This document shows, in pieces, positions 43,007 to 57,461 of a DNA stretch of 64,000 bases. The DNA lies in the NCBI GenBank assembly GCA_045606045.1, contig JAZURE010000032.1:9863-73862 (forward strand), in the 5' to 3' direction. Origin of the DNA: Clostridia bacterium (lineage in GTDB: Bacteria; Bacillota; Clostridia; UMGS1810). The number at the start of each line of letters is the position of its first letter. The stretch's first letter is position 1. The notes under the pieces are model-generated. The model saw only the letters and a program-made list of their open reading frames with translations, was not told the DNA's origin and ran no database searches. Position numbers and translations under genes: made by a program.

Positions 43007-43028
43007 AGGGCGCAGCCTCCTTTCGCTT

Positions 43029-43334: not shown

Positions 43335-43336
43335 AG

Positions 43337-43636
43337 CTACGCCTCCTCGATATATTCACTTGATAGCTGCAAATGCTTTTTAAGCATATCGTAGCTGTTG
43401 CGGTACTTTTCCGCGTCCGCGTTATCGAGTCCAAACTCGGCTTTTACATAACAGACAATAGCCCGCTTTATAAGCGCGTCGCTTTCGTCCTCAACCTTTG
43501 CCGCTTTGATACCGCCTAATAGGAGGTCGGCGCGAGCCGCTCCTATTAGGTCGGTAATTTCTGCGTCAAAATGAGTATGGCTTATGCGTAGGTATCGGCG
43601 AACATCATAAACAAACTGATTTGAGATATTCGCCAT
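43337..43636 (-). CDS. head-tail connector protein (gp6-like)
   Basis: 99 aa. ...YLRI....FDAEITDLI.AA..DL....I resembles Phage_connect_1-type proteins. Confidence 0.6.
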   Translation of the reverse strand: MANISNQFVYDVRRYLRISHTHFDAEITDLIGAARADLLLGGIKAAKVEDESDALIKRAIVCYVKAEFGLDNADAEKYRNSYDMLKKHLQLSSEYIEEA

Positions 43637-43652
43637 AGGTCAGCCCTCCCGA

Positions 43653-44849: not shown

Positions 44850-44866
44850 ATTCTCCTTTTCTGTTT

Positions 44867-45463
44867 TTAGAGTAAAGTTTTAGCTATAAGCAACTTGCGG
44901 CGGCGGGCTTGCTCCAAAGCCTTAAACTCTTTCGAGTGCTCCTCCTCGAAAAAGCCTCGCGCTGAAATTGAGGTTTCGTTATACGCGGGAATATCCACCG
45001 CCGAAACATCATATAGCTTTTTTATTTTAGTTATCGTCCGAGTATGAGTATCGACATTGTAGCTCGACTCCTCAATAGTGAACGAAAAACTCATTTTGTC
45101 AATGTAGCCGCCTTTGATTTCTTCGTAGAGGTTGCGCCCCTCTACAGTTCCTCCCAGGTTAGCCTCTGCGTCTAACCCGTTATCGTCGATAAATAGCTGT
45201 AAAGTCTTGTTACGGAGGCGGGCTACAACCTTTCCTCCGTGATTGTAATTAAAAATTACATCACTCATATCGCAATTATCGAAAGCCCCTCGGGCTATTA
45301 CCTCGTAATACTTAACGCCGTCGCACTCAAAAAGGCAAGTAGGCGTATCGAACACAACTGCGCGTCCGTGCACAATATAGTCGGAGCCGCTTTCGGACTC
45401 GGCTTTATCGGGTGCAAGCATTTGGCTAAAATTTCGGTATTCTCTGTTTGGTTTTCTCGGCAT
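44867..45463 (-). CDS. prohead maturation protease, HK97 family
   Basis: 198 aa between the portal and capsid genes, with the ...DVSAVDIPAY... region. Confidence 0.8.
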   Translation of the reverse strand: MPRKPNREYRNFSQMLAPDKAESESGSDYIVHGRAVVFDTPTCLFECDGVKYYEVIARGAFDNCDMSDVIFNYNHGGKVVARLRNKTLQLFIDDNGLDAEANLGGTVEGRNLYEEIKGGYIDKMSFSFTIEESSYNVDTHTRTITKIKKLYDVSAVDIPAYNETSISARGFFEEEHSKEFKALEQARRRKLLIAKTLL

Positions 45464-45466
45464 TTT

Positions 45467-46747
45467 TTACTCCTCCTCTGTTTGGTTTTTGGTGCCCTCG
45501 GGTACCGCTGTCTGTGCGGTACCCTCTGCGGGCGGGGTTGTTTCTGTTTTTTCGCCTAATTGATACTCGTCGGCTTTGGCTGCATTAACCATATTGAGCG
45601 TTTGCACGCGACGCGCGCCCTCCTCGCCTCCAAGTGGTGCCATATTATAGGCAAGCAATACGCCGTCAATGGTAATAGCTCCAATATCGGCAAGAAATTT
45701 AAGCGTAGTAGTCTTGTCCGAGAGTTTCTCGTTTTGCAAGCTGTTACCCTCAAAGATAATCTCGTTACCATAGGAGGGCTCTTTACCCGAAAAGATAGCG
45801 TTTGTAAACGCCTGGGTACATTGCTCAAAAAACGGTTTAATTTCTCCGTTATAATAAGCTGCTGCCTCCTCGGGCGACTCCTTATTTTGCACGATTTTTT
45901 CGTTAGTGCCGAAATAATCGTAAATTTCGGACTTAACATACGCAAGTTGTCCCGTAGGTATAGGCGTTTGCTTGTCCGTAATAGGTGTATACTCGTACTT
46001 ATTGTCGGTAACAATAACGCCCGCTCCGTTGTTTTCCATTTTGAGGTTATCGCGTATAAACTCGTCGCGGCGGTTTTTTAAGTCCTCGTTTTTGGTGGAG
46101 GCTTGAATTTTCAAAATACCTCTAACAACAGCAATAAGTTCTGCAAACTTACTCATTGATTGATTAAAAGTGTTTGCCGTTTCAAGCACGGGGAATACGG
46201 GGCGATTATTTTCTCCGAAAATGTCATTTTCGTTAAAATGTGAGCCGATATGTATTAAGTCTGTATACGGACAAGTGTAACGATTTCCCGTTGCAAAAGT
46301 CATACGGCAATATAATTCGCCCTGGTACTCGATAAGTTCGATAGAGTTTGCGTTGATATTATAAAGAGCCTCGAGCTTTCCCGTATATTCGTTCCATACG
46401 GGGTATACGAAAGCGTTGTTATAGAGCTTGTATTGTGTGGCAAGCCTATAATAAAACTTGTATGCTGTCGTATATGGGTTAGGCTTAAACTGTAAAAGCT
46501 GATTGTATTTGCTCTTTACATCAGTTAATTTCCCCTCTCCGCGCCGTATGTGTCGCGGTTTTACCGTTGCCGCTCGGCGTGCAAAGCCGTTTACTGCGGC
46601 GCGCACCGTATTTACATCATAAGCATTGCCCGAAAAAGGGGTAAATGTCGTTTGCCAAGTGTTTAAGAGCTTGTATGTCTTAAAGGCACCCGTAACACTC
46701 TTGACTTTCCCAAAAATTTTTTGAAAAAGTCCTCTTTTTTCTTGCAT
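45467..46747 (-). CDS. portal protein, HK97 family
   Basis: 426 aa downstream of terL. Confidence 0.8.
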   Translation of the reverse strand: MQEKRGLFQKIFGKVKSVTGAFKTYKLLNTWQTTFTPFSGNAYDVNTVRAAVNGFARRAATVKPRHIRRGEGKLTDVKSKYNQLLQFKPNPYTTAYKFYYRLATQYKLYNNAFVYPVWNEYTGKLEALYNINANSIELIEYQGELYCRMTFATGNRYTCPYTDLIHIGSHFNENDIFGENNRPVFPVLETANTFNQSMSKFAELIAVVRGILKIQASTKNEDLKNRRDEFIRDNLKMENNGAGVIVTDNKYEYTPITDKQTPIPTGQLAYVKSEIYDYFGTNEKIVQNKESPEEAAAYYNGEIKPFFEQCTQAFTNAIFSGKEPSYGNEIIFEGNSLQNEKLSDKTTTLKFLADIGAITIDGVLLAYNMAPLGGEEGARRVQTLNMVNAAKADEYQLGEKTETTPPAEGTAQTAVPEGTKNQTEEE

Positions 46748-46751
46748 TTAA

Positions 46752-48404
46752 TCACCCCACATTATACATAAAATCGTCATAGTATTTGACATAGATAACC
46801 CAGGCATTAAGCAGGCTTACCGCCCCGTCGATACGGCGTTTGTCGGTTATCTTGACGGGTTGAATATTATTTAACCCGCTTTTCTTTACTGCCGTATTTG
46901 ATAAGCACCAAAGCAAAATAGGGTTATTGTTATAATTAACTATCTTGTCGGCGAGAGCTGCGCCCATTTCTCGCATAGGTTGGCTCCAAGTAAAAGGTCC
47001 CTGCGCTACGGGCTCCATAGTAAAGCCGTTGTTTTTCATTTCCTCCACCCAATAGCCCGCTAACGCTCTATCGTAGCCGACTTTGAAAGCGTCTATAGAG
47101 TGCTCGTCGCGCATTTGGCAAAACCAGGCTGTTACATCAGAAAAATTAACGCGGTTTCCGTCGCAGATAGTGAGCAAGCCCCGCTCCGCCCAAAGGCGAT
47201 ACGGTGCCTCGTTTGTGTTTTTCTCCTCCAGGTGTTCTATGCGCGCCTGCGGGAGGAAATATTGCTGCAATACATAAACCGTTTTGTCGCCTGGTTTTCT
47301 TATAAGCAGCGTAGCCGCTGTTAAGTCGGTAGTAGCCGAGAGGTCGCAGCCGCCTATAGCGTATGTATTGTATACCTCGGACATATCGAAAGTAGCAGCG
47401 TTTTTAATTTCCTCAAAGGATAACCAAACATTGCTCTCGTTTTCGCGTATGTTAAAGTCTTTACATAGTACGCCTGGTAAGTCAGCAGGGTTATTCTTTG
47501 CCCTCTCAACGAAAGCGGCAAGGGTTTTATACTGTTTGATTTTGCCGAGCCCTGGGTTTGCTTTTATCCACATTTGAGGGTTAGTCCACTCGTCGCGGCT
47601 GTCGAGCTCGTAGAGTATCGGCAAAAATGTATCGTCTTTTTTGGTACCGTCCGCGAGCTCGCAAGCAAGCTCGTACATATTGTCAAAAATACATTCGCGT
47701 ACAGTTCCCGCCGTTGTTATCATAACGACGAGGGGCTGCCTGCGGCTCGAGGTCGATTGTTTCATAACCTCGTATAGGTTTCTGTCGCGGATAGCGTGCA
47801 GTTCGTCTATAATAACAGCGTGAGAGTTCAAGCCGTCAAGCGTATTTGAGTCCGAGGCGAGAGCCTCGAAAATAGAGGAGGTAGCAGGGAAATAAACATC
47901 ATTACGACGCTTTTTTATAACCGCCCGCAGCTCGGGCGATTGCTTAATCATATTGACAGCCTCGGTCAATACCTTTTTTGCCTGGTCTTTTTTGGTCGCT
48001 ACGGAGTATATTTCCGCTGCGCCCTCATAGTCGGCAATGAGCATATATAACGCAATACCCGATAGCAGGGTAGACTTACCGTTTTTTCGTCCACACAAAA
48101 ACATAGTTTCACGAAAACGACGGTAGCCCGTTTCCTTTTCAAGCCAACCGAAAAGCAGTTGTATAAATGCTTTTTGGAATAATTCGAGCTCAAGCGGAGC
48201 TCCGATAGTTCCCTGGGATTGCTTGCAAAAGGTTTCGATAAAGAGTATAGGTCGCTCGCCCGTTTCCTCGTCGAAATAATAGGGAAAGTCGGCAGGCGGT
48301 GCCTCCATTTCTGCAATAAGTCGAGAGTAGACAGCTTTAACACGCCTACTCGTTACAATCTCGCCGCTCTCTATGCGGCTATAGTATTCTTTTACCCAAT
48401 TCAA
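46752..48404 (-). CDS. terL: terminase large subunit
   Basis: 550 aa with Walker A-like CGRKNGKS, and an AVIIDELH Walker B motif followed by a nuclease domain. Confidence 0.9.
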   Translation of the reverse strand: MNWVKEYYSRIESGEIVTSRRVKAVYSRLIAEMEAPPADFPYYFDEETGERPILFIETFCKQSQGTIGAPLELELFQKAFIQLLFGWLEKETGYRRFRETMFLCGRKNGKSTLLSGIALYMLIADYEGAAEIYSVATKKDQAKKVLTEAVNMIKQSPELRAVIKKRRNDVYFPATSSIFEALASDSNTLDGLNSHAVIIDELHAIRDRNLYEVMKQSTSSRRQPLVVMITTAGTVRECIFDNMYELACELADGTKKDDTFLPILYELDSRDEWTNPQMWIKANPGLGKIKQYKTLAAFVERAKNNPADLPGVLCKDFNIRENESNVWLSFEEIKNAATFDMSEVYNTYAIGGCDLSATTDLTAATLLIRKPGDKTVYVLQQYFLPQARIEHLEEKNTNEAPYRLWAERGLLTICDGNRVNFSDVTAWFCQMRDEHSIDAFKVGYDRALAGYWVEEMKNNGFTMEPVAQGPFTWSQPMREMGAALADKIVNYNNNPILLWCLSNTAVKKSGLNNIQPVKITDKRRIDGAVSLLNAWVIYVKYYDDFMYNVG

Positions 48405-48769
48405 GGCTTTTTCGGTACCTTGTTCGGTTTAGTAGCAAACATCATAAGAGCCTGCCCCGCTTTGTCCGCCTCGGAGTTTGGCTCGAGGTCGGAGAGCTGT
48501 TTAATGGTGGCATTATAATTCTTTACCATTGCGTTATAAGGCTGTAAAAGAGGGTGCGCTCTTTCGATTTTGTACGCGCCCTGCGGCATTTCAACGACGA
48601 GTCCGTCCTCGTTGATTTTTGCCTCCATATCCTCCAAAGAAACGAGCATATAAGCGGCTCGTTCAATCAATTTTTTCGCGATTTCGAGCTGTTCTTTGGG
48701 TAGATTTTTGTATATTTTCTTAATTCTGTTCTGCTCTTTCTTTTGTCGCGCATATAATGTAGACTCCAC
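48401..48769 (-). CDS. terS: terminase small subunit (P27-like)
   Basis: 122 aa that overlaps the terL start. Confidence 0.65.
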   Translation of the reverse strand: MESTLYARQKKEQNRIKKIYKNLPKEQLEIAKKLIERAAYMLVSLEDMEAKINEDGLVVEMPQGAYKIERAHPLLQPYNAMVKNYNATIKQLSDLEPNSEADKAGQALMMFATKPNKVPKKP

Positions 48770-48863
48770 TTAAAAACTCCTTTCTTTTGGTTTTGGGTAG
48801 GGGGGTAATGCACACAAGGGGCGGTCATAAAAGGGGCTTAAACACGGTTCATAAAATACAAGG

Positions 48864-49100
48864 TCAAACTTTTTTAACGGGGGGGATAGTTTGCTCTTGT
48901 GCGCCTGCTTTGTGTACCTCGATAGCAACAACATTGATAGCGTTAAGTATTAACTTTGTGCCCTCTACGGTATCGAGTAATACTGTGCCCTCCTCAAGCG
49001 CAGTAGCGAGCCGCTCTTGAAAGTCGTCTGTAGTTGCCTCGACATTGAAAGACAATGCCGCATTGCTTGTATATATAATTATCTCGCATACTTTGCTCAT
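48864..49100 (-). CDS. hypothetical protein
   Basis: 78-aa ORF between the HNH and terS genes. Confidence 0.45.
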   Translation of the reverse strand: MSKVCEIIIYTSNAALSFNVEATTDDFQERLATALEEGTVLLDTVEGTKLILNAINVVAIEVHKAGAQEQTIPPVKKV

Positions 49101-49396
49101 AGGTAGCCCTCCCTTTCTACGAGGTTTCCCTCGCTATCAAACATAAGCCCGCTTGCTGTAGCAGGCTGTCCCTCGTGCTCTATAGCGTGGCACTCACGGC
49201 ATAGCAGCTCGAGGTTATCCTCCGAAAGCGTGATACTCGGGTTATCTATGTTGTGCGGTGTAAGGTGTATTTTGTGGTGTACTATTTCTCCAGGCTTACC
49301 ACACCGTACACATAGCCCCAGGTCGCGCTTAAATATATATTCCCTGGTATCTCTCCAGGTCTTGCTTAAATAAAACTTGCGTGCAAACTCTTGCAT
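49097..49396 (-). CDS. HNH endonuclease (terminase-associated)
   Basis: 99 aa with C..CG...(E)IVHHKIH....N......L..LC..CH. Confidence 0.85.
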   Translation of the reverse strand: MQEFARKFYLSKTWRDTREYIFKRDLGLCVRCGKPGEIVHHKIHLTPHNIDNPSITLSEDNLELLCRECHAIEHEGQPATASGLMFDSEGNLVEREGYL

Positions 49397-49556
49397 ATAA
49401 CAGCGTCCCGCCCTCTCCGCCGTAGTGAGTGTTATATCTACTCCCGATACAACGACAAAGCGAGCCGCTATTTGCAGCTCGCCTCAACCGTCTATTTCTA
49501 CGGTATCAGTATACAGCAGCAAAAAGCAAGTTTCTATACAGCCTTTTTTCAAATGC

Positions 49557-49997
49557 CTAAATTGAGGGTAGAGCCGAGGCTCCATAGTAGAGCAAAGCAA
49601 ACTCTGCTACAGCTTTATTTCGGAGGTTATAAACCGTAGTAAGCGACTCTACATAAAGCTCCTCCATAATAGCCTCTTTTGAGCGTTTCTCAACATACCA
49701 CAAAACGACGACTTTTTTATATTCCTCGTTAAGTTGGTCTATGATGTTTTCGAGCTCCGCGAGCTTGCGCTGCGTTTCCGCTATGTTTTTTGAGCACTCC
49801 GAAAGCTCTAAAAGCTCGTTTAGGGTGTCGCTTACATAGTGCGAGTCGGTAAAAGGCTTGTTATAGTCAATAGCCCCAGGCTCGCGCGGTTTTCCTTGCT
49901 CTATTAAGCGTTGCTCTCTTTTCTGCAAATTTTCTAACGCCTTTTTTAGCGTTGGTATCGAGCCGAGCACTTGCTCCGCCGCCTTAAAGTAGTTCAT
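49557..49997 (-). CDS. putative late-gene transcriptional activator (sigma-70 region-4-like, ArpU/RinA type)
   Basis: 146 aa with a C-terminal HTH-like region (VVVLWYVEKRSKEAIMEELYVESLTTVYNLRNKAVAEF), just upstream of the packaging module. Confidence 0.5.
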   Translation of the reverse strand: MNYFKAAEQVLGSIPTLKKALENLQKREQRLIEQGKPREPGAIDYNKPFTDSHYVSDTLNELLELSECSKNIAETQRKLAELENIIDQLNEEYKKVVVLWYVEKRSKEAIMEELYVESLTTVYNLRNKAVAEFALLYYGASALPSI

Positions 49998-50022
49998 AGC
50001 ATAACCTCCTCTCTGTTTTTTG

Positions 50023-50160
50023 CTAAAATGTTACTGTTACATTGAGCACCGCAGCAGCGAGCCAATATACAGCGCGTTTATAATCTTTGCCAATTACGCA
50101 CATAACCGCCGCGCCTACATCAAGCAAAATAAGCGCAACGGGGAAAATATACATAGACAT
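50023..50160 (-). CDS. small membrane protein (45 aa)
   Basis: The internal Met after an AAGGAGA RBS is preferred. The protein has two hydrophobic segments. Confidence 0.4.
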   Translation of the reverse strand: MSMYIFPVALILLDVGAAVMCVIGKDYKRAVYWLAAAVLNVTVTF

Positions 50161-50191
50161 TTTCGTTTTCTCCTTTCCCTGGGAGGCGTTT

Positions 50192-50971
50192 TTACTGTCG
50201 CTCATAATAACCTCGCTTTCTACTCCGTTTCGGAGTCGGCTTTTTATACATTTTGACGGTCAAATAATAGCCGCCGTTAATTTCGTTGTAGTACGGCTTA
50301 ACCTCTGCCAGGGAGTAACCCTCGTAGAGTCGCTCGAGCTCCTCGTGCATATCGTAGCCGCTGTCGTGAATTTCTTTGACTTTGTATTGCGGCAGCCTGC
50401 CGTCCCGCTCCGAGGTTTTAGGCTGCTCAAGGTTTCGACTTGCACACCAACGCTTGCCGAGTATAGGCTCCTTTATGAGATACTTTGCAATGCCGACTAT
50501 GCCGTACTCGTCAAACTGTAAAGGCTTTGCTGTCGTATAGCCTCGGCTCCATATTTCCGCAAGGGTGTTTATATCTACGCCGCCGCTCATAACGATATGG
50601 TGGTGCAGGCGTGCGCTTTTCTTGCCGATTTCGGTAACTGCGACATATTTTAAGTCGGGTAAACCGTTCTTTTTGCGGTACCGCTTGACTCTGCGGAGGA
50701 AATTTTGCATTTCTCTTTGTGCGTCCTCGGGAGAGCCTGGGTAGTTCTCGTCGCTGTATGTAAGGTCAAACCTTATGTCCTTTTTTGTAAAGTTTGTATT
50801 AAGCAAGCGTATTAACTTGCGCTCGGCGTTTCTTTGGTTAAGCCTTTTTTGAGTTTCCGAGGTCGGCTTACGCTTTTTGCTCCGTCCTCGCTGATATTCA
50901 AAAACGGGGAATATATCTACCTCCAAATACTCGCCGCAATAGTGTTTCTTTTCTCTGTATAGGCAACGCAT
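50192..50971 (-). CDS. HUH-superfamily rolling-circle replication initiator-like protein
   Basis: 259 aa with motif 1-like IRFDLTY, the HUH motif RLHHHIVM, and the Tyr motif GIAKYLIKE. Confidence 0.65.
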   Translation of the reverse strand: MRCLYREKKHYCGEYLEVDIFPVFEYQRGRSKKRKPTSETQKRLNQRNAERKLIRLLNTNFTKKDIRFDLTYSDENYPGSPEDAQREMQNFLRRVKRYRKKNGLPDLKYVAVTEIGKKSARLHHHIVMSGGVDINTLAEIWSRGYTTAKPLQFDEYGIVGIAKYLIKEPILGKRWCASRNLEQPKTSERDGRLPQYKVKEIHDSGYDMHEELERLYEGYSLAEVKPYYNEINGGYYLTVKMYKKPTPKRSRKRGYYERQ

Positions 50972-51283
50972 ATTTTAACCTCCGTGTATACTCTTGGGGC
51001 TCTGCCCCAAACCCCGAGGTTTAACGCTTTAGTTTTCCATAAGGGAATATTAAAAAGCAGCGGAGGAGGCAGGCTCATTTCCGCCCACTCTCATACGCTC
51101 ATACTAAAAACTCATAACGCGCTTATTTAGCATCTATCCTCTCTGCAAATAAAAGCATAGTTTCCTCGGTCTATATCTGCCAACAAAACAAGAGTATTAT
51201 ATTTTTGTCCCTCTCGGTTTTTGGTCGTTAAGTTATTATCCATTACGAGCCCAAAATACAAGAGGCTTTTTTCGCTCTTTCTA

Positions 51284-51312
51284 TTGACTTTTTGTTGCCT
51301 CTGTGCTATAAT
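51284..51312 (+). promoter_or_regulatory. near-consensus sigma-70-type promoter on the plus strand, opposing the early operon
   Basis: TTGACT, a 17-nt spacer, then TATAAT. Confidence 0.65.
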
Positions 51313-51318
51313 AATTAC

Positions 51319-51385
51319 AAGATGTTAAGCAACACAAAGGCGGTTGCTGCGGCTATCACTCGGGCGGAGTGGTAGCCGCTTTTTT
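51319..51385 (+). ncRNA. candidate small RNA of about 65 nt (countertranscript-like)
   Basis: It starts about 7 nt after the -10. It ends in an 11-bp stem GCGGCTATCAC/GTGGTAGCCGC (51349..51379) followed by TTTTTT. Confidence 0.5.
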
Positions 51386-51837
51386 CATTTAATAAATTGC
51401 CAGGATTGAGGCGGGCGGGTTATGCCAAAGTCCGAAAGAGGGCGAGGCTTTGCAAACCTCGTAGGATTGCTTACTACATAGGCGTAAACATCTTTGCCGC
51501 CTGCATACGCTACGAGCTGCTCCTCGGTAAGACAAGCTCTCTTTGCTATTTCTGCGCGAGCTGCTGCCTCCTCGGGTGTATTGCTCTTGTGTAGAGCCGC
51601 TCCGAAAGCGTCAGTTTTTATAATTACATTACAAGTATAAAAGCCTACTACAGCTCCCGCTCCAGGAAACAACACGCCTCCCGAGCCTTTATATAGGTGC
51701 TTTGTTTCATACATATATATAGTATAAGGAAACGCACCGCCGCTCGGGGCTGTTTTCCTCATTTCGTAGCCCTTGAGCTCTTTTAAGATGTTCTCGGCGT
51801 GTTCGTGGTGTATTGATTGCATTATTACGCTGCTCAT
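51385..51837 (-). CDS. ASCH (PUA-like) domain protein
   Basis: 150 aa. The N-terminal SIHHEHAENILKELKGYEMRK region resembles the ASCH domain start. Confidence 0.5.
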   Translation of the reverse strand: MSSVIMQSIHHEHAENILKELKGYEMRKTAPSGGAFPYTIYMYETKHLYKGSGGVLFPGAGAVVGFYTCNVIIKTDAFGAALHKSNTPEEAAARAEIAKRACLTEEQLVAYAGGKDVYAYVVSNPTRFAKPRPLSDFGITRPPQSWQFIK

Positions 51838-52484
51838 TTTTTACCCTCCGAGGCTGCCTTGTACTCTGCCGCTTTGGTTAATACTTTTATAGAGTAGCTC
51901 GTTTCGTATACGCCTTTGTCCCAAAGGACGGAGGCTCCGTATTCTCCCATATTGTACGCCATACATACCCTTGAGGGCTCGTCGTACTTTTCAAACAATC
52001 GGCGGAGGATATAAAGCCCGCCGCGTATGTTTTGGTAAGGCTCTGTAAAATCAGTAATACCCAGGGCGGAGGAGAGCTCCGCGTGGTTGCATTTGTTTAT
52101 CTGCATTAAGCCGCTATCATTTGTCCCGCTCACTATATCGGGCTCAAACTTTGACTCTGTATACATAACCGCCATTACAAACTCAAAGTCGAGGTAGTAC
52201 GCCTCGCATAAATAATAGGTAAACTCTTGCAGCTCGACGGGTAAATCGCACTCGAGAGGCTCAAAGCCTGCCGCCATTTCATAGCTAAAGGTCGTCCCGC
52301 CTTTTTCTGTTATGTATCTACCGTCGCGGGTACCGTACCGCTCCGACGAGCCCGAGCTGCGCGGAGTAGCCGCCGCAACGATAATACCGCCAATAATGGC
52401 TCCTACCAGGAATATACATATAATAAAGGTAATAATCTGTCGCTGCGCTTTTCTACGCTGCGGTCTTTTTGTTTGATGTGTCAT
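51834..52484 (-). CDS. membrane-anchored lytic transglycosylase (SLT domain)
   Basis: 216 aa with an N-terminal TM helix and SLT motifs: YTESKF (catalytic Glu-Ser), GLMQIN and AYNMG. Confidence 0.8.
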   Translation of the reverse strand: MTHQTKRPQRRKAQRQIITFIICIFLVGAIIGGIIVAAATPRSSGSSERYGTRDGRYITEKGGTTFSYEMAAGFEPLECDLPVELQEFTYYLCEAYYLDFEFVMAVMYTESKFEPDIVSGTNDSGLMQINKCNHAELSSALGITDFTEPYQNIRGGLYILRRLFEKYDEPSRVCMAYNMGEYGASVLWDKGVYETSYSIKVLTKAAEYKAASEGKK

Positions 52485-52495
52485 AGGTTAACCTC

Positions 52496-53095
52496 CTAAA
52501 ATTCTATTTCGCGGAGGTCTATTCCGCCTGCGGTTTTTAACCTCTCGTAAACGCCTTTTAATTCGTGCACAAAAAACCTTGCGCGCTGCTCTGTGCTGCC
52601 GTCCTCTCCTAAATGATGTAAAAACTCATTTTTTGCTAAACAAGCAGGCTTTAATACCGCCTTTAGTGGCTCGCCCTCCGAAAGACATATTTTTAGAATT
52701 TGAGCAAGCGTTTTTCCTGCGCGGCGGGCAAATTTTATATCCGCGCCGTATTCTTTGCCGTTCAGTATGTACTCTTTTTGCCAATCAAAGAGGGAAAAGC
52801 CGAGCACTTGCTCTACCTTTTTTATTGTCCTCTCCTGGCGGGCTTGTTTCTCTTTTAAGAGGGTATCTCTTTCAAGGCGTATTTGTTCTATAGCCGCCGT
52901 TTCGTCTACAAAGCAAAAGTCTACTCTTTTTCCGTCGTCTTTCCTCGTAGTGTCAAGCTCAATAACTAAAGGCTCTTTGTATCTCTCGTCGAGTAATAAA
53001 ACGCCCTCGTTTATCATTCGGTGTAGGTGTATAAGCATTAAATTTTTACACTCTTCCGAAATAAGAGCTTTTAACTGTAAAATAATCAGTTTCAC
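52496..53095 (-). CDS. hypothetical protein
   Basis: 199-aa ORF in the early region. Confidence 0.5.
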   Translation of the reverse strand: MKLIILQLKALISEECKNLMLIHLHRMINEGVLLLDERYKEPLVIELDTTRKDDGKRVDFCFVDETAAIEQIRLERDTLLKEKQARQERTIKKVEQVLGFSLFDWQKEYILNGKEYGADIKFARRAGKTLAQILKICLSEGEPLKAVLKPACLAKNEFLHHLGEDGSTEQRARFFVHELKGVYERLKTAGGIDLREIEF

Positions 53096-53289
53096 AATAT
53101 AACCTCCTTAACTCTTGACGCGTCCGCAATAATTACGCTGTTGCAGTTTTTGTCTAATAGCTCCGCCTGCAAAAGCAGCTTGCCCTCTCGCAGCCGATAA
53201 ATTATAGCGGAAACACATTTATAAATAATACCGTTATGCTCTACTTGGCAGCCGCTAAATAGAGCGTTTTTAATTTCCTCATTTGTCAT
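53092..53289 (-). CDS. hypothetical protein
   Basis: 65-aa ORF with an overlapping stop/start with the neighbouring gene. Confidence 0.4.
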   Translation of the reverse strand: MTNEEIKNALFSGCQVEHNGIIYKCVSAIIYRLREGKLLLQAELLDKNCNSVIIADASRVKEVIL

Positions 53290-53379
53290 ATAGCCGCTCC
53301 CGTTCCTTATTTCTTTTTATTACTTATAAGCACTAAAGTAATAAGCGTAGCGCATATAATAAGGGTAATAATTACTCCG

Positions 53380-53613
53380 TTACTCATTGTCTACCTCCTC
53401 AATATCATAGTCCCAGGATAAATTAGCGCACGATTTCGCCAGGCGTTCCGCTGCGTTTTCGGCTCTTTTTTTGCTTGTGTATTTCTTTGCCTGCTCGCGC
53501 TGCGAGCCCGCTACAGCCGCGTATCTTTCTCCGAGTACGCTGTATGTGCCTCCCGAGATATACTCGGGAGGGCTGCCGTCGTTATATTTGAATTTGATAA
53601 TGTATTTACTCAT
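53380..53613 (-). CDS. hypothetical protein
   Basis: 77-aa ORF. Confidence 0.4.
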   Translation of the reverse strand: MSKYIIKFKYNDGSPPEYISGGTYSVLGERYAAVAGSQREQAKKYTSKKRAENAAERLAKSCANLSWDYDIEEVDNE

Positions 53614-53626
53614 TTGTCGCCTCCTA

Positions 53627-53642
53627 TGCGCCTAACGGCGCA
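53627..53642 (-). promoter_or_regulatory. GC-rich hairpin downstream of VR2 (DGR homing hairpin candidate)
   Basis: TGCGCC-TAAC-GGCGCA: 6-bp stem, 4-nt loop, 29 nt from the VR2 end. Confidence 0.65.
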
Positions 53643-53644
53643 GA

Positions 53645-54334
53645 TTACTTAAAGATTGAGGGATTGAAAATACAAGCGGGGGCGACTCCGTAAGCACAGT
53701 GCGCGTTGTAGTTGCCCAACGCTCCCGAGGTATTCACAATGCGCTCGCTGTACGCGTACCCAGGGGTGCAGCTCCAGGGTGTTATAGTCCATACCCAGGT
53801 ATCGTATTTAGGCACGAAAGCTCTATACTTTCTGTAAAGGTCGTCCGAAAGCAAAGCGATAAAGTCCTCGGAGGTACCGTAGCTCTTGTCGCCGTTGTCC
53901 GCTGTTAAGTCGGAAATAATCGGTATAAGGTCGCCCTTGTCAAAATTCTTTATGTATTCCTCGTTAAGGAATTTGCGGAGGGTAGAGCTGCGCCAATCGT
54001 TGCAGCAGTTCTCGTCGTAAGGCATTTCGGGCTCGAGCCTCTTTGCCGCTACAGCAAGTACGCCGCCCTGCTTATAGCCCAGGGCTACAAACTCCATACC
54101 GTTATAATTAAAGTGCTCGCCCGCCGTTGGTATCTTGTCGCTTATAGGCTCGGGCTTGCCCTCTCCGTTCTCCTGGTCGTCCTCGTATTCGTCCTCATAC
54201 TCCGCAGGGGTAAAAATGCCTGCAAAAGCGAGGGAAACAACCGCCTCGGCTCTTTTCTTGTTGTCCTCGGGGTTTGGGTTGGTCGCTATGTCGTCGCAAA
54301 GGGACTCTATAGCTGTTAAAATGCTGCTGTTCAT
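53645..54334 (-). CDS. DGR target 2: small acidic protein with a C-terminal CLec-type variable domain, no signal peptide seen
   Basis: 229 aa with an acidic linker (EYEDEYEDDQENGEGKPEP). The C-terminus ...WSCTPGYAYSERIVNTSGALGNYNAHCAYGVAPACIFNPSIFK contains VR2. Confidence 0.8.
   Translation of the reverse strand: MNSSILTAIESLCDDIATNPNPEDNKKRAEAVVSLAFAGIFTPAEYEDEYEDDQENGEGKPEPISDKIPTAGEHFNYNGMEFVALGYKQGGVLAVAAKRLEPEMPYDENCCNDWRSSTLRKFLNEEYIKNFDKGDLIPIISDLTADNGDKSYGTSEDFIALLSDDLYRKYRAFVPKYDTWVWTITPWSCTPGYAYSERIVNTSGALGNYNAHCAYGVAPACIFNPSIFK
53672..53767 (-). repeat. DGR variable repeat 2 (VR2), remote from the cassette
   Basis: 96 bp collinear with TR 31091..31186, with 13 mismatches, all at TR adenines. 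Confidence 0.88.
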
Positions 54335-54346
54335 AAATTAACCTCC

Positions 54347-54799
54347 TTAAATATTCTCGTATGTATCTACGAGCTTTTGTAATTCTGCAAAAAGCGGAGC
54401 TATTGCTCGCTTGTTCTGCCTTGCATTAAGTAGCTGCTTTCCCAGGGCATAGAAAGCGGATAGCTCCCGCTCCGTAGCTTTTGCCTGCTCAACAGCCTTT
54501 CGGGCGTTCTTAACCTCTGTACGGGCTGCCCTCATTTCGTCAAACTCTTTTGCCGAGAGCTGCACGCTTGCCGTTACGCCTTTTGCTTTGCCTCCGCCTC
54601 TTAAATGGTATAGACGGTTGCGCGTTGCGTCCTGGGAGCGGTTGAGCTCCTCGGCGAGCTGCGAAATAAACTTGCGCTCTTTTTGGTACCCGCGCAGCAG
54701 CAGCTCGTCCTCCTCGGGAGTCCAGGCTCCCGTCTTAACCGCTGCCCGCTCGGGTGTAAATTCGTGCCCGCATTGCGGACATTTTACAGCTTTACACAT
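54347..54799 (-). CDS. zinc-ribbon plus Myb/SANT-like HTH protein
   Basis: 150 aa with an N-terminal CPQCGHEF motif followed by WTPEEDELLLRGY. Confidence 0.45.
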   Translation of the reverse strand: MCKAVKCPQCGHEFTPERAAVKTGAWTPEEDELLLRGYQKERKFISQLAEELNRSQDATRNRLYHLRGGGKAKGVTASVQLSAKEFDEMRAARTEVKNARKAVEQAKATERELSAFYALGKQLLNARQNKRAIAPLFAELQKLVDTYENI

Positions 54800-54977
54800 T
54801 TTTTAATTCCTCCCGTATATTTCTCTTTATGGTCTGCAAACAATCCTCCCCAGGCTCACGCATACAGCCTTGCGTATCTCCGAGCATAAAGGAGCAAGGG
54901 CAGATGTCGCAATCATTGCCGTCGCTTGTCATTTCAAAAATTATTTCTGCGACTCTTTGCAATTCTTTTTCGTTCAT
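54792..54977 (-). CDS. small Cys-rich hypothetical protein
   Basis: 61-aa ORF. Confidence 0.4.
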   Translation of the reverse strand: MNEKELQRVAEIIFEMTSDGNDCDICPCSFMLGDTQGCMREPGEDCLQTIKRNIREELKNV

Positions 54978-55927
54978 TGCGCGAGCCTCCTTTGTTTGTG
55001 TAGTGATAATTGCTCGCTAAAAAAGCTACTAATATTAAAATTGTTGTTTCTTATTTGAAAAGCGTCGCCACATTGCACAATGTCGGGGTAATTATCATTA
55101 GCAACGAGCATAGCGTGCTTGTCTATCTCGTAAGCGTAATACTCTACATTAGTAAAGCCCATTTTATCCAGGCAATAGCGGCCCGTACCTATACCGTCGT
55201 ACATTGATACGACTACTATTTTTTCGTTGCGGGGCACATTTCCAAGTGCGCCATTAAGAATATGTATAATAATTTCTGCCGTCCAACCGTTACCCGTGCC
55301 GTTGTATCGTTGGCTGTCGCTTACAGCTTTTGTATAGTTGTCGGGTAGCGTTTGCAAGCGTTCATATTCTATCGGTGTTAATTTTCTCGGTATGCCGTTT
55401 TGCATTACCTTTTTAACGCGGTGTCCGCCTCCTCCGTCGCAAGTAAGAGTAGGCGATTTGTAGTTGATGTTGTGTACGCGCTTTATAATATCCATTGCTT
55501 TAATATCCATTAAAGCGCATACTGCTTTATCGTCGCCGAGAGGCGTAAAAGGTGTATTTGTATACCAATATTTTGACGGTACCTCCGAGGCGGGTAACAA
55601 TATGTCTTTTAGGACGAGTCCTCTTTCTTTTGGTTGTTCAACCGTCCAATTAAAACCGTAAAACCGCTTCCGATTTTGAGCAGATAATAAAGAGCTGTTT
55701 ATGTGCATAAGTTCAGTATTGAGCTCGTAGCTTATTTGCTCTTTGATTGCTTGAGCTGCAGACTCGTTATTTTCGTATAAGAAAAGGTCGGGCTTGAATT
55801 TTTCTTTTGCTATTAAGTAATTTTTGAATAGTTCCCAACCGAGCCCGCTTGCCGTTGTTTCTCTGTCTTTTGCGCGAGCTACGCTCCAATGAGTGCAAGG
55901 GCTGCCGCCTATCAAAATTCTAATCAT
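54974..55927 (-). CDS. DNA (cytosine-5)-methyltransferase with apparently circularly permuted motif order (IV-X then I-III)
   Basis: 317 aa. Motifs in order: GGSPCTHWS (IV) at residues 7-15, FLYENN (VI), QNRKRFYG (VIII), LTPIEYERLQTLPDNYT and GNGWTAEII (IX/X), then VVSMYDGIGTG (I), YAYEIDKHA (II) and GDAFQI (III) at the C-terminus. Confidence 0.7.
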   Translation of the reverse strand: MIRILIGGSPCTHWSVARAKDRETTASGLGWELFKNYLIAKEKFKPDLFLYENNESAAQAIKEQISYELNTELMHINSSLLSAQNRKRFYGFNWTVEQPKERGLVLKDILLPASEVPSKYWYTNTPFTPLGDDKAVCALMDIKAMDIIKRVHNINYKSPTLTCDGGGGHRVKKVMQNGIPRKLTPIEYERLQTLPDNYTKAVSDSQRYNGTGNGWTAEIIIHILNGALGNVPRNEKIVVVSMYDGIGTGRYCLDKMGFTNVEYYAYEIDKHAMLVANDNYPDIVQCGDAFQIRNNNFNISSFFSEQLSLHKQRRLAQ

Positions 55928-56724
55928 AAAATATCCTCCTCGATATAATCAAATAAGGTAAGCTGTTCGTAGTGTGGAGTAGCTATATAAGCGTCTACCT
56001 TTGCGGAAATTTCCTTGAAAGTTTGTCCGTACTTAAAGCCCTCCGATACCTTGTTAGGTACGCCGTCGAAAATAACGAGCTCCTCCCATAATTCGGGGTG
56101 GTTAGTCTTTAGGTAGGCAAATTCTTTTATAGTTTGATTAGGACAAAACCAACAGCCGCCACGCTTTGCAAACTTGTATGTAGGAGAGATAAGGTTGTAA
56201 GGTCTTAAAATGTCGTATGTTTGCTCCTCTATAATTCCTTGTTGCTCAAGTAGGGAAATTTGCCCTTTTTTATGAACGCGCTCGAGTCTTTCAGGCTCGT
56301 CGGCAGCTATGCCGATATATTCCTGGTATTCTCTGTCCAACGATTTAAGATAGCGTTTCATTGGGTTTACTTTTTCTCTGTTCAAAACGCACATACCTCC
56401 GAGGAGCCAGGCTGCAAGTTTTCCCTTTCTTTCCGCTTTGCGGGGGTTTTCAATCGGGCGGTAGAAATTATAAACATAATCTCTTTCGCCCTCGACTACT
56501 TTAACCTTGTAACCCCAGGACTCAAAAAGCGGTATTGCGTGATTAAATATCCACTCTATTACCTCCGGATATTCGGCGTATATGCCCCGTTTTTTGTCAA
56601 ACCATATTAAAGAAATAATAATAAGGTCTATAGGTATTCCGAGTTCGTGAGCTAATACTATAGTCGCTGTAGAGTCTTTGCCGCCGCTCCAACATATAAT
56701 ATTTAGCTTTGTTTCGGTACTCAT
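55924..56724 (-). CDS. PAPS-reductase-family (PP-loop ATP pyrophosphatase) protein
   Basis: 266 aa with the PP-loop motif WSGGKDS and a C-terminal GGCWFCP motif. Confidence 0.75.
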   Translation of the reverse strand: MSTETKLNIICWSGGKDSTATIVLAHELGIPIDLIIISLIWFDKKRGIYAEYPEVIEWIFNHAIPLFESWGYKVKVVEGERDYVYNFYRPIENPRKAERKGKLAAWLLGGMCVLNREKVNPMKRYLKSLDREYQEYIGIAADEPERLERVHKKGQISLLEQQGIIEEQTYDILRPYNLISPTYKFAKRGGCWFCPNQTIKEFAYLKTNHPELWEELVIFDGVPNKVSEGFKYGQTFKEISAKVDAYIATPHYEQLTLFDYIEEDIL

Positions 56725-56960
56725 AATGCTTTTAGCACATCATTTGCAATAGCTCTTTCGCTGTCGGCTGTTATGCAAACTCTGCGCTTATAACCATTTT
56801 TATACAGAATAACGCAAAACTCGTCGCGGGTACCTTCGTTGTATTCATAAGAGAGGGACTCTACGCCGTCGTCGAGTCTTTTTATAAACGGCTGCAAGCT
56901 AAACTCGATAAAATCGCTTTTTTCTATAAAAGGTATAGAAAAACATTGCTCTCTACTCAT
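56721..56960 (-). CDS. hypothetical protein
   Basis: 79-aa ORF. Its initiation region is identical over 27 bp to that of the transposase gene. Confidence 0.45.
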   Translation of the reverse strand: MSREQCFSIPFIEKSDFIEFSLQPFIKRLDDGVESLSYEYNEGTRDEFCVILYKNGYKRRVCITADSERAIANDVLKAL

Positions 56961-56982
56961 AATAAAATCACTCCGTTTTATT
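56956..56982. repeat. 27-bp direct repeat covering a translation initiation region (copy 2)
   Basis: Identical to 25692..25718. Confidence 0.85.
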
Positions 56983-56990
56983 TATATTTT

Positions 56991-57242
56991 TTACTGCGCC
57001 GCTGCGGTCTTTCGGTGCCCTCGGCGTTTGATACTGTCTTGTACGGTCTTTTGTGCAATGTCCGCACTATAACCGTTGCGCCCGTTGTTGTCGAGCTCGC
57101 CCGTACTGCCTCTCGTCATTTCTCTATAAATGGTCGCAAGATGTACTCCGAGCTTGGAGGCAATTTCTACGAGGCTTGTATTTGCTGTATAAAGAGCCTC
57201 AATACTCTTTCTATCCTCAAATGTGAGGTATCGGCAAGTCAT
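56991..57242 (-). CDS. stand-alone IS30-type helix-turn-helix protein (paralog of the transposase N-terminus)
   Basis: 83 aa. LTFEDRKSIEAL......IASKLGVHLATIYREMTRG aligns with transposase residues LTFTDRLKIEAW......MAAELGVHISTIYRELKRG. No DDE domain is present. Confidence 0.7.
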   Translation of the reverse strand: MTCRYLTFEDRKSIEALYTANTSLVEIASKLGVHLATIYREMTRGSTGELDNNGRNGYSADIAQKTVQDSIKRRGHRKTAAAQ

Positions 57243-57280
57243 ACGCGCTTAACTCCTTTCTTTTTATCTTTGGAGAGAGT

Positions 57281-57310
57281 AAGGAGCGGAGGACGCGCCC
57301 TCCGCTCCTT
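57281..57310. promoter_or_regulatory. perfect 12-bp-arm palindrome upstream of the first early gene (operator or 5'-UTR hairpin)
   Basis: AAGGAGCGGAGG-ACGCGC-CCTCCGCTCCTT. Confidence 0.5.
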
Positions 57311-57387
57311 ATTCCCTTATGCTAAAATCTCACAACGCGCTCGAGTCGCACCTCTGCGGAGCTCTATCCTCGTTATGAGCAAAAGCC

Positions 57388-57433
57388 ATAAAAAAATAAG
57401 TGCGTTAGGTCTAAAAAACCTTTCGCACTTATT
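57388..57433 (-). terminator. minus-strand intrinsic terminator at the right prophage end
   Basis: 10-bp stem AATAAGTGCG/CGCACTTATT (57395..57404 / 57424..57433), followed on the minus strand by a T-run. Confidence 0.45.
57413..57430. repeat. degenerate inverted-repeat copy C
   Basis: The reverse complement AAGTGCGAAAGGTTTTTT matches AAGTGCAAAAAATTTTTT (24627..24644) at 15 of 18 positions. It lies 15 bp inside attR. Confidence 0.45.
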
Positions 57434-57445
57434 ATAAAACTTTAT

Positions 57446-57461
57446 AGATACAAGTATTTTA
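57446..57461. repeat. attR core (AGATACAAGTATTTTA)
   Basis: Identical to 24585..24600. Confidence 0.8.

Follow-up and report, generated by a model that had tools for sequence, protein, structure and literature searches.

The prophage and its repeats

The window, that is, the whole 64,000-nt stretch of DNA analysed here, contains a 32.9-kb prophage delimited by a 16-nt direct repeat (24585-24600 and 57446-57461), with an IS30-family DDE gene at its left end and the host genes thrC, ispD, ispF and fhs starting at 57541. Its virion genes are siphovirus-like (Dit, Tal, TMP), and one tail-completion gene is kept outside the main late block. The prophage carries a DGR cassette with a reverse transcriptase (RT) 36-52% identical to the RTs of DGR-bearing gut phages, a template repeat (TR), and an Avd protein which was recognised by PHROGs alone, with no match in Pfam or NCBIfam; RT motifs, Avd, TR and IMH are all intact. 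Two proteins carry a variable repeat: Target1, with a baseplate-attachment domain (BppU_N) and a C-terminal VR1, and the small, remote Target2 (Table 1). VR2 had been placed 22 kb from the TR, which holds for the integrated map (22.6 kb) but not for the circular form. Since the prophage measures 32.9 kb between its att repeats, the distance there is about 10.3 kb (8.9 kb in a circular 30.9-kb relative), and the larger figure is an effect of the prophage map.

Table 1. Features of the prophage, its DGR cassette and its two targets, in window coordinates
Feature	Position	Strand	Description
Prophage with both VRs	24585..57461	.	32.9 kb; 16-nt direct repeat AGATACAAGTATTTTA at both ends
DGR reverse transcriptase	29879..30943	-	354 aa; RVT_1; motifs LGSQVSQ, YMDD
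TR, template repeat	31091..31219	-	full 129 nt pairs with VR1; 31091-31186 (3' 96 nt) with VR2
Avd accessory protein	31238..31648	-	136 aa; phrog_3206 'Avd protein of DGR', E 7.4e-29
VR1 hairpin	31667..31684	-	CCGCCTC-GGTA-GAGGCGG; 20 nt past VR1; loop matches GRNA consensus (PMC3240598)
Target1	31693..33708	-	671 aa; BppU_N (Pfam 3.5e-12), Ala-rich coiled region, DUF6273 (1.9e-18); tail-fibre PHROGs
VR1, 3' end of Target1	31705..31833	-	96-nt core 31705-31800; homology reaching TR 31219
VR2 hairpin/cruciform	53627..53642	-	TGCGCC-GTTA-GGCGCA; +29 nt from VR2, +2 nt from stop codon, without T-run
Target2	53645..54334	-	229 aa; Pfam DUF6273, phrog_9958, AF2 model, Foldseek; helical hairpin 3-41, acidic disordered linker ~42-70, DUF6273/C-lec-like domain 71-229
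VR2, variable repeat	53672..53767	-	3' 96 nt of TR homology; Target2 residues 190-221
IMH-like 3' end of VR2	53672..53689	-	GGAGTCGCCCCCGCTTGT; TR counterpart ends ...CCCCCGATTGT (IMH*)

A scan of the window that allowed up to 30 substitutions found the 96-nt element only three times, as TR, VR1 and VR2. VR2 differs from TR 31091-31186 at 13 positions, all 13 on TR adenines (hypergeometric p = 5.1e-8), while adenine makes up 31 of the 96 nt on the coding (minus) strand of the TR; coordinates, strand, mismatch count and each of the 13 positions given in the first-pass annotation were reproduced exactly on recomputing, as was the restriction to adenines. The 96-nt core of VR1 differs at 11 positions, again all on TR adenines (p = 9.6e-7), and TR-VR1 homology is longer (129 nt) than that of VR2, which covers only the 3' 96 nt. 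The mismatches of both VRs fall at codon positions 1-2 of AAC/AAT codons with a single exception, TR 31095. Just five mutated positions are common to VR1 and VR2, and the bases differ at two of these, indicating that the two repeats diversified independently, as had been proposed.

The exception, an A to C change at codon position 2 of a GAT codon, is fixed in VR1 and VR2 of every relative (VRs carry CCCCCGCTTGT, TRs CCCCCGATTGT), as seen when all VR1, VR2 and TR copies of the lineage from the window, IMG/VR contigs and MAGs were compared. It therefore distinguishes IMH from IMH* and did not arise by mutagenesis, so that the 13 mismatches stand in number and position but this one has to be read differently. 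The 3' end of VR2 is the GC-rich IMH GGAGTCGCCCCCGCTTGT seen in VRs, as opposed to ...GATTGT in the TR.

The hairpin downstream of VR2 was considered as an intrinsic terminator and ruled out, since a T-run is absent and the next gene's RBS follows directly. It is kept in 12 relatives, with both-sided change at three pairs, and 85.7% of cells are paired, compared to 25-62% with the pairing slid. Relatives have GATA or GGTA loops and stems of 5-7 bp. Phage VR hairpins have been described as GC-rich stems of 7-10 bp with a 4-nt GRNA loop, 4-34 nt past the VR (PMC3240598); the VR2 hairpin is alike in its GC-rich stem and 4-nt loop, but its stem is shorter (6 bp) and its loop, GTTA, is off the GRNA consensus.

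Counting the window, six genomes have TR and VR2 together on a single contig. In these, VR2 showed 10-17 mismatches to its cognate TR, all at adenines and none at any other base, whereas most non-cognate TRs gave 3-9 non-A mismatches, except for genome pairs with the same TR at non-A positions. TR-VR2 spacing is conserved in these genomes (21.8-23.5 kb). Relatives with 1.3-2.4% divergence outside VR2 show differences at 13-14 of the 31 adenine sites and at 0 of the 65 other VR sites (14/31 and 0/65 in the one at 1.3%), and the entropy of Target2 over 52 orthologues has its maxima exactly at the 13 AAY codons; VR2 is thus hypervariable, not invariant, across relatives. Adenine-only differences, tracking of the cognate TR, the IMH and the downstream hairpin together indicate, on the sequence evidence, that VR2 is a genuine target in trans of the RT/Avd/TR cassette and has been used recently, which bears out the earlier identification of a second DGR target.

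A second, TR-divergent lineage has a pair of one large adjacent and one small remote target on one 31-kb contig. In other lineages (L081, L085, L089, L090) the TR was not found within +/-10 kb of the loci, so that DGR-target status is read there from the IMH and hairpin signatures only. About 25 further matches of the contig pattern scan (Acidobacteria, archaea, others) were unrelated chance or peptide-motif matches and were set aside.

Target2 and its gene neighbourhood

The Target2 ORF is preceded by an RBS (AAGGAGG) 8 nt upstream. Its product has a pI of 4.4 and the acidic linker already described for this 229-residue protein, and the earlier view that it lacks a signal or TM segment agrees with our analysis: signal peptide, TM segment and lipoprotein anchor were looked for and none was found, with a maximum 19-residue Kyte-Doolittle mean of 0.96. 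Of 150 family representatives, only 3 have TM-like segments, and one of these is a mis-merged protein. Pfam DUF6273 matches Target2 partially (26.9 bits against a cutoff of 23.5) and is matched in 89 of 116 subfamily members; the match to phrog_9958 is strong (E 1.8e-50).

Structure prediction, which the first-pass annotation had suggested, gave a C-lec-like (DUF6273) fold with a pLDDT of 91.8 when AF2 was run on a diverse 116-sequence alignment; an earlier model from close orthologues alone (pLDDT 49) was discarded. Foldseek matched the model to DUF6273 proteins in BFVD (E 1.8e-9) and to PDB entry 9qa6 (E 4.3e-6, probability 1.0; profile E 9e-4), with weak matches to canonical C-type lectins (E 0.7-4). 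The model places the 13 hypervariable residues encoded by AAC/AAT on C-terminal beta-strands. Conservation is as high in the N-terminal module as in the globular domain, and the linker is free to vary. As modelled, the VR2 product is a soluble protein in which a flexible acidic linker joins a two-helix N-terminal module to a DUF6273 (C-type-lectin-like) binding domain.

As had been noted before, Target2 lies among non-structural genes, the order being HTH_38, PAPS-reductase-like, C5 methyltransferase, Myb-like, Target2, SLT and Rep, followed past Rep by a DUF1492 regulator (49557-49997), HNH and terminase. Similar placement was seen throughout the small-target subfamily: in all 12 contexts read, among 928 family clusters, the gene was in an early/replication/DNA-modification region, and in none was it in a tail or head module. 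Some subfamily members are fused to Lar_restr_allev (E 9e-14), HTH_3/CI or YopX domains, with no virion domain among the subfamily fusions found. The Lar domain is N-terminal in three relatives (P0164, P0271, P0293) and C-terminal in one (P0142), and a CxxC pattern scan of the subfamily found zinc-ribbon-like modules at either terminus. Target2 itself has no match to the Lar zinc ribbon (PF14354), which is seen in relatives only; the Lar-fused relatives are a lead to function and do not make Target2 a Lar-type protein. Early-region position and the Lar-like, HTH and YopX fusions favour, without proving, a non-tail role.

Readings of the small target

The best explanation in our view, at a probability of roughly 0.55, is a joint one, in which VR2 is a genuine second target and Target2 an early-operon, self-acting programmable binder. 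By established DGR biology, the TR would first be transcribed, and RT with Avd would make cDNA from it with random copying at adenines. This cDNA would replace DNA with TR homology that ends in a GC-rich IMH and is followed by a short GC hairpin, at two sites: VR1, in the baseplate-attached tail protein by the cassette, and VR2, at a distance of about 10 kb in the circular form. In Target2, the 13 residues on the predicted C-terminal beta-strands would be rewritten.

Two other explanations concern the origin and present state of VR2. Its similarity to the TR could come from duplication of or recombination with VR1, or from chance, rather than from retrohoming, and Target1 and Target2 share 45% identity over their C-terminal 71 residues. 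However, BLASTP detects no similarity between the two DUF6273 domains beyond the TR-homologous stretch, the differences are confined to adenines in a pattern unlike that of VR1, and VR2 follows the lineage-specific non-A changes of the TR; adenine restriction and cognate-TR tracking effectively refute such an origin. It is also improbable, though less extremely so, that VR2 here is a relic which homed formerly and is now no substrate, for example because of a sub-optimal hairpin. The short stem and the GTTA loop would fit this, as would phage Lelie, in which read-level variation was absent at both VRs in culture (PMC11792537), but VR2 has no non-A mismatch to the present TR, the near-identical relatives L043, L048 and L068 differ in VR2 while sharing the GTTA loop, and RT, Avd, TR and IMH are intact.

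With regard to function, we consider it about an even bet, judging from sequence, that Target2 is an early-operon product acting as a programmable binder on its own and not a tail component. Against this, every phage DGR target characterised by experiment is, to our knowledge, a binder exposed on the virion. We leave a sizeable minority chance that Target2 is a virion-associated accessory receptor-binding protein or adhesin with an Mtd-like role, which would be produced inside the infected cell and dock by its N-terminal hairpin on the tail or head to give a second, independently tunable specificity. Tail-borne Target1 and Target2 have the C-lec/DUF6273 scaffold in common and one TR serves both, and the conserved N-terminal module with its variable linker has the classic adaptor-plus-head layout; that module may be a virion-docking adaptor, and gene position is no proof of timing or location. 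The phage tolerates a structural gene outside the late block (the tail-completion gene), and an Mtd-like receptor-binding role was assumed by the authors of PMC10743442 and bioRxiv 10.1101/2024.10.15.618418. On the other hand, the gene was in a tail or head module in 0/12 contexts, an attachment domain of the Mtd-like beta-prism, Ig or BppU kind is absent from Target2, and the fusion partners in the subfamily of Target2 are cytoplasmic modules.

For the small DUF6273 targets at large, it is possible, if somewhat unlikely, that they are non-virion, early, cytoplasmic DGR-programmable binders directed against a variable factor of the host or of a competitor, such as a component of restriction or defence. 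Through diversification, some of the genomes that enter a new cell would then bring along a variant that binds this factor. The recurrent methyltransferase, PAPS-reductase-like and Lar-like neighbours and the Lar-type zinc-ribbon fusions point to an intracellular target. Intracellular C-lec 'antigen sensor' targets are described for bacterial DGRs in the accessible text of PMC10907252; if the intracellular reading is true, this would be the first phage DGR with such a target and a parallel to those sensors. If the small targets are non-virion, the picture of phage DGRs as retuners of host attachment needs a second chapter, and the present lineage, whose genomes of 31-33 kb combine two VRs with clear cis-elements, would lend itself well to testing the idea.

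Comparison with known systems

The first-pass annotation had implied that a remote small target is new, which is not borne out. Small stand-alone DUF6273 second targets remote from the cassette have been published (PMC10743442, PMC11792537, bioRxiv 10.1101/2024.10.15.618418), and a catalogue of non-adjacent DGR targets inside prophages dates from 2017 (Wu et al. 2018, PMC5758913). The prophages of that survey resemble ours in having one adjacent and one non-adjacent target less than 50 kb apart in the same prophage, but the small DUF6273 class and its early-region position were not characterised there.

VR2 is like the system of BPP-1 Mtd (Guo et al. 2011, PMC3240598) in its adenine-specific TR-to-VR transfer and the GC-rich IMH at the VR 3' end; the BPP-1 GC hairpin, with a 4-nt loop and 4-34 nt downstream, is sufficient for targeting heterologous genes in trans. 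The proteins differ: Target2 lacks the beta-prism/beta-sandwich of Mtd, has a two-helix hairpin as its N-terminus, is not adjacent to tail genes, and gave no match to Mtd by sequence profile or Foldseek. The only solved structure matching the Target2 model, 9qa6, is the N-terminal DUF6273 domain of the Thomasclavelia ramosa IgA peptidase (PMC12402451), a domain of a secreted, cell-wall-anchored bacterial protease and no DGR target, for which the accessible text of that source states no role.

Closer are nd4_tgt2 and nd12_tgt2 (Baykov et al. 2023, PMC10743442), which are small as well (234 and 294 aa), with a single DUF6273/C-lec domain, short flanking helical segments and the VR at the 3' end of the gene, 29-31% identical to Target2 (E 4e-14 and 2e-9, respectively). 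As with Target2, their genes lie in the early/replication block, about 10-12 kb from the RT. Of the named phages in the collection, nd12 has the RT closest to that of the window (42% identity), and it has an IS30-family transposase about 5 kb upstream, an IS30-family gene being present in our prophage too. Unlike the window phage, with its siphovirus-like virion genes and BppU_N first target, nd4 and nd12 are small myoviruses and have as first target a 'tentaclin', in which an N-terminal C-lec is combined with Ig domains; by the definition of PMC10743442, Target2 lacks tentaclin features, having no Ig/Fn3 domains and a C-terminal C-lec domain. The N-terminal helical hairpin and acidic linker are specific to the Target2 lineage and differ from the second targets of nd4 and nd12.

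Faecalibacterium phages Lelie and CP11 (Gulyaeva et al. 2024, PMC11792537) and Toutatisvirus (bioRxiv 10.1101/2024.10.15.618418) have, like the window, one TR with a large and a small DUF6273 target. They differ in TR sequence and a GVRPAL-type end, in having the domain of the small target near the N-terminus with a C-terminal tail, where Target2 has its domain C-terminal, and in that no perfect-stem GC hairpin with a 4-nt loop was found past their VRs. Their small target, which lies 15-17 kb from the TR and belongs to the core genes of the phage group, is 34-35% identical to Target2; the VR/TR match of Lelie orf58 was re-derived here, and by tblastn Target2 matches nd4_tgt2, Lelie orf58 and Toutatis gp24 with E values of 1e-11 to 4e-14 (30-35% identity). 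The neighbours of the Lelie gene (methyltransferases, a gene with a cell-wall hydrolase domain, Rep, a late regulator) are similar to those in the window.

Target2 is another member of this published class of small stand-alone DUF6273 second targets, and the present case, which spans a whole lineage of Acutalibacteraceae/Ruminococcus prophages, is one more well-documented example in a class with three published descriptions. Large DGR surveys miss targets that do not adjoin the RT (PMC8144416); the small targets missed in this way appear, from their sequences, to form a coherent family with early-region placement and, in some members, fusion to cytoplasmic modules. What is new here is the placement of the small-protein subfamily in the early/replication region in each of the 12 contexts and the Lar-like zinc-ribbon fusions of some of its members.

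Variable repeats and their template

The diversity-generating retroelement (DGR) cassette in the window is complete, and on the minus strand it runs through Target1 (the 671-aa tail protein that carries VR1), the accessory protein Avd, the template repeat TR, the reverse transcriptase RT, a tail-fibre-assembly-like gene, a holin and an amidase endolysin. Searched on both strands with the 96-nt core of TR, and with as many as 30 substitutions tolerated, the window yielded three copies: TR, VR1 and VR2, the last within the gene for the 229-aa protein Target2. This reproduced exactly the VR2 coordinates and the 13 mismatch positions of the first-pass annotation. TR has 31 adenines in 96 nt (minus-strand reading), and all 11 VR1 mismatches (hypergeometric p = 9.6e-7) and all 13 VR2 mismatches (p = 5.1e-8) fall at these adenines, so that the adenine restriction of VR2 held on recomputing. 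With the exception of the fixed A->C at TR 31095, the altered adenines occupy the first two positions of AAC/AAT codons. Every VR1 and VR2 of every relative ends in ...CCCCCGCTTGT and every TR in ...CCCCCGATTGT; judged from these ends, the change at 31095 is the distinction between IMH and IMH* (the 3' end boxes of VR and TR) and no product of mutagenesis. Thus, while all 13 mismatches lie at TR adenines as first described, the one at 31095 does not count as diversification. TR-VR1 homology extends to 31219, 129 nt in all, while VR2 corresponds to the 3' 96 nt of TR only. VR1 and VR2 have only five mutated positions in common, two of them with different bases, and therefore diversified independently of each other, as had been proposed. 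Target2 upstream of codon 190, the VR2 homology's first AAC codon, is without TR homology, yet codon 190 is hypervariable (entropy 2.7 in orthologues).

Features of the window and of related loci (L-numbers, relative loci or contigs; P-numbers, representatives of the small DUF6273 family)
Feature	Position	Strand	Remark
Direct repeat AGATACAAGTATTTTA, left	24585-24600		16 nt
IS30-family DDE transposase	24656-25696	-	HTH_38 + rve
RHH/CopG-like gene	25759-26013	-	beside DDE gene
Tail-completion/Neck1-like gene	27014-27571	-	phrog_5; weak HK97-gp10 match
RT	29879-30943	-	RVT_1; LGSQVSQ and YMDD motifs
TR core	31091-31186	-	96-nt search
Avd	31238-31648	-	phrog_3206, E 7e-29
Target1	31693-33708	-	BppU_N + DUF6273
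VR1 core	31705-31800	-	11 mismatches to TR
VR1 hairpin	+20 nt after VR1		CCGCCTC-GGTA-GAGGCGG
Promoter-like site, terminator	51284-51379	+	TTGACT-17-TATAAT with TG
Hydrolase-type gene, window	51834-52484	-	
VR2 hairpin	53627-53642		TGCGCC-GTTA-GGCGCA; 29 nt past VR2, 2 nt past stop codon
Target2	53645-54334	-	
VR2	53672-53767	-	13 mismatches to TR
Target2 codon 190	53765-53767		TR 31184-31186
83-aa ORF	57242-56991	-	55% identity to HTH_38-family ORF beside IS30-like gene in L085
Direct repeat, right	57446-57461		16 nt
Host genes begin	57541		thrC, ispD, ispF, fhs and others
Target2 helices	residues 3-18, 22-41		AlphaFold2
Target2 disordered acidic stretch	residues ~42-70		AlphaFold2
Target2 globular domain	residues 71-229		AlphaFold2
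Hydrolase-type gene, L089	8818-9561		
Hydrolase-type gene, L082	7381-7974		
Lar-type (PF14354) fusion P0164	L084 921-1745		N- or C-terminal
Lar-type (PF14354) fusion P0142	L087 1132-1818		N- or C-terminal
Lar-type (PF14354) fusion P0271	L090 10001-10801		N- or C-terminal
Lar-type (PF14354) fusion P0293	L091 10001-10816		N- or C-terminal

VR2 in relatives

By pattern scans of IMG/VR and of a set with one genome per species, copies of TR, VR1 and VR2 were found in viral contigs and in many MAGs of Acutalibacteraceae, Ruminococcus and Clostridia. In the six genomes with TR and VR2 on one contig, spacing between the two is kept at 21.8-23.5 kb and the 10-17 positions that separate VR2 from its own TR are all adenines, with no non-adenine mismatch in any of the six. 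Compared with TR variants from other genomes, VR2 shows 3-9 non-adenine mismatches, save in pairs with the same TR at non-A positions; VR2 therefore tracks lineage-specific TR changes, a pattern explicable only by repeated copying from TR. In three relatives whose Target2 shows 1.3-3.2% divergence outside VR2, differences affect 13-14 of the 31 adenine sites and none of the remaining 65 sites of VR, and the entropy peaks of 52 full-length Target2 orthologues (residues 190, 193, 195, 196, 199, 201, 207-210, 212, 213 and 215) are exactly the AAY codons of TR. VR2 is thus hypervariable in relatives, contrary to the scenario, raised earlier, of an invariant VR2 beside a varying VR1. We hold VR2, with about 95% probability, to be a genuine trans-target of the DGR, with recent activity in this lineage.

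VR2 and VR1 have a GC-rich end box in common. The VR2 hairpin has no T-run, and the RBS for the gene downstream comes directly after it; its stem is kept across 12 distinct relatives, with both-side changes in 3 of 7 pairs and 85.7% of cells paired, as against 25-62% with the 3' arm slid. In BPP-1, an IMH together with a hairpin of this kind suffices for homing to a heterologous gene (Guo et al., PMC3240598), and phage DGR targets carry GC stems of 7-10 bp with 4-nt GRNA loops, 4-34 nt after VR (PMC3240598). The window hairpin is slightly off this consensus, with its 6 bp stem and GTTA loop; in relatives the loop is GATA or GGTA.

Other DGR-like lineages (L009, L010, L014, L015 and L016 from IMG/VR, and L008) have the same 21-nt VR end, TACGGAGTCGCCCCCGCTTGT. 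A TR of its own is present in L008; five contigs have one VR-like sequence in common, invariant among them, and no TR within the contig DNA examined. The 18-nt IMH pattern also matches Acidobacteria genes (L047, L050, L052, L053, L067, L071, L074) in which it codes for a conserved N-terminal peptide, ...IGVAP(A/D)CPYGYYDYAPYNCAP; these matches look like a peptide-level coincidence unrelated to DGRs.

Fold and genomic position of Target2

In the AlphaFold2 model of Target2, built with a diverse 116-sequence alignment (pLDDT 91.8), the variable residues are on the last, C-terminal strands of the globular domain (196-200, 206-210, 214-217, 220-223). Foldseek matched the model to viral DUF6273 proteins (best E 1.8e-9) and, among solved structures, only to 9qa6, the DUF6273 N-terminal domain of T. 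ramosa IgA peptidase (E 4.3e-6); canonical C-type lectins came below 9qa6 with non-significant E-values, and no match resembling Mtd, the BPP-1 tropism determinant, was found by fold (Foldseek) or sequence profile. Outside the TR-homologous 71 residues no similarity between Target1 and Target2 is detectable, and therefore one TR serves two divergent DUF6273 scaffolds. With a pI of 4.4 Target2 is acidic, and it lacks any hydrophobic segment, in agreement with its initial description.

Inward from the right end of the prophage, which is bounded by the direct repeat, the minus strand encodes the 83-aa ORF, a 79-aa ORF, a PAPS-reductase-like gene, a C5 DNA methyltransferase, a 61-aa ORF, a Myb-like gene, Target2, ORFs of 77, 65 and 199 aa, a membrane-anchored SLT transglycosylase, Rep (REP_ORF2-G2P), a DUF1492 regulator and HNH, then terminase, portal, protease and capsid genes, tail genes, the DGR cassette, lysis genes, the tail-completion gene, the RHH protein and, at the left end, the IS30-family DDE gene. 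Target2 thus lies in a non-structural block, as annotated. The distance of 22 kb from TR holds only on the integrated map (22.6 kb); in circular form the genome separates the two by ~10.3 kb along its other arc. The 30,865-bp IMG/VR contig 3300045988_071380 is a closed circle (55-nt terminal overlap, RT split across the junction) in which lysin, tail-completion gene, IS30-like DDE, methyltransferase, Myb-like gene and Target2 are contiguous, with VR2 8.9 kb from TR. No tyrosine or serine recombinase was found in the window prophage, and the same DDE gene lies between lysis and early genes in the circular relative L001, in L085 and in the gut phage nd12; the DDE transposase therefore looks like the phage's integrase.

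Both here and in L001, the tail-completion gene is separate from the main structural block and sits past the endolysin. A strong plus-strand promoter-like site occupies the 300-nt gap between the Rep and phrog_3136 genes, with a 13-bp-stem terminator ~40 nt past it; this pair, antisense to the phage operon, may specify a small RNA.

Role of Target2 and published second targets

The small DUF6273 family comprises 928 clusters at 50% identity, mostly of 160-300 aa. We read the neighbourhoods of divergent members, and in 12 of 12 readable contexts, the window included, the gene is in an early, replication or DNA-modification region, and in none of the 12 is it part of a head or tail module. The neighbours are methyltransferases, a 3D-domain protein, Rep and antiterminator Q in the gut phages Toutatis and Lelie; in nd4 the gene is past the lysin and ahead of genes for a record-annotated 'DNA polymerase III alpha subunit' and SSB, and in nd12 it is 5 kb past an IS30 transposase. 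P0139 is between ParB and N6_N4 methyltransferase/Rep/HNH; P0152 follows SSB, Hydrolase_2 and N6 methyltransferase and precedes Lar, PAPS reductase, ParB and terminase; P0130 follows CI-like HTH, IS30 DDE, HTH_38 and PcfJ and precedes Rep and HNH; P0218 is fourth in an early operon divergent from a CI-type repressor, ahead of DNA methylase, SLT, Rep and TerL; P0271 and P0293 are among DnaB, RecJ and RNA ligase, or SNF2, UDG, PAPS reductase and GIY-YIG. On one 31-kb contig of a TR-divergent lineage, the small target is directly upstream of Rep, DUF1492, HNH and TerL, with Target1, Avd, TR and RT elsewhere on that contig. A peptidoglycan-hydrolase-type gene (membrane-anchored SLT, Hydrolase_2 or 3D-domain protein; gp16 in Toutatis) recurs in early operons with the small DUF6273 gene.

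We infer, at roughly even odds, that Target2 is an early-operon soluble binder and no tail component. The main rival, a virion-docked accessory adhesin, is possible with the odds somewhat against it. The authors of the published small DUF6273 targets assumed a receptor-binding role. A Pfam census of 116 small members found none fused to a virion domain. The same census found Lar_restr_allev fusions in 2 of the 116 (the N-terminal match of P0164 being full-length, E 9e-14) and one fusion each to an HTH_3/CI-type domain, YopX and Zn_ribbon_4; a CxxC pattern scan added five members with a zinc-ribbon-like module at one terminus or the other (P0130, P0142, P0143, P0164, P0185). Fusion of the small DUF6273 domain with a Lar-type zinc ribbon, a restriction-alleviation domain (PF14354), occurs at the N-terminus in P0164, P0271 and P0293 and at the C-terminus in P0142. 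Target2 might more specifically be a programmable intracellular or anti-restriction binder, which we consider less likely than not.

Several distant members, the Lar fusion P0164 included, keep a GC box and a 4-nt-loop hairpin 23-25 nt past the GVAPAC motif, the hairpin being in most cases inside the coding sequence; the loop is GACA, which fits GRNA, in three of four (P0139, P0130, P0164) and CACA in P0129. Retention of both elements suggests that these distant members are probably DGR targets too, although a search of their contigs, over up to 10 kb on either side, found no TR. P0271, 78% identical to P0164, has lost the hairpin.

Wu et al. (PMC5758913) compiled non-adjacent DGR targets located within prophages, and metagenome surveys miss such targets, according to Roux et al. 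(PMC8144416). The small stand-alone DUF6273 second target is a class published three times, including nd4_tgt2 and nd12_tgt2 (PMC10743442) and the second VR of Toutatisvirus, 17,480 nt from TR and core to 98.8% of genomes (bioRxiv 10.1101/2024.10.15.618418); for Lelie orf58 (PMC11792537) we re-derived the VR/TR match. Target2 is homologous to these published targets at 29-35% identity, and is therefore a further case of an already known class of second target.
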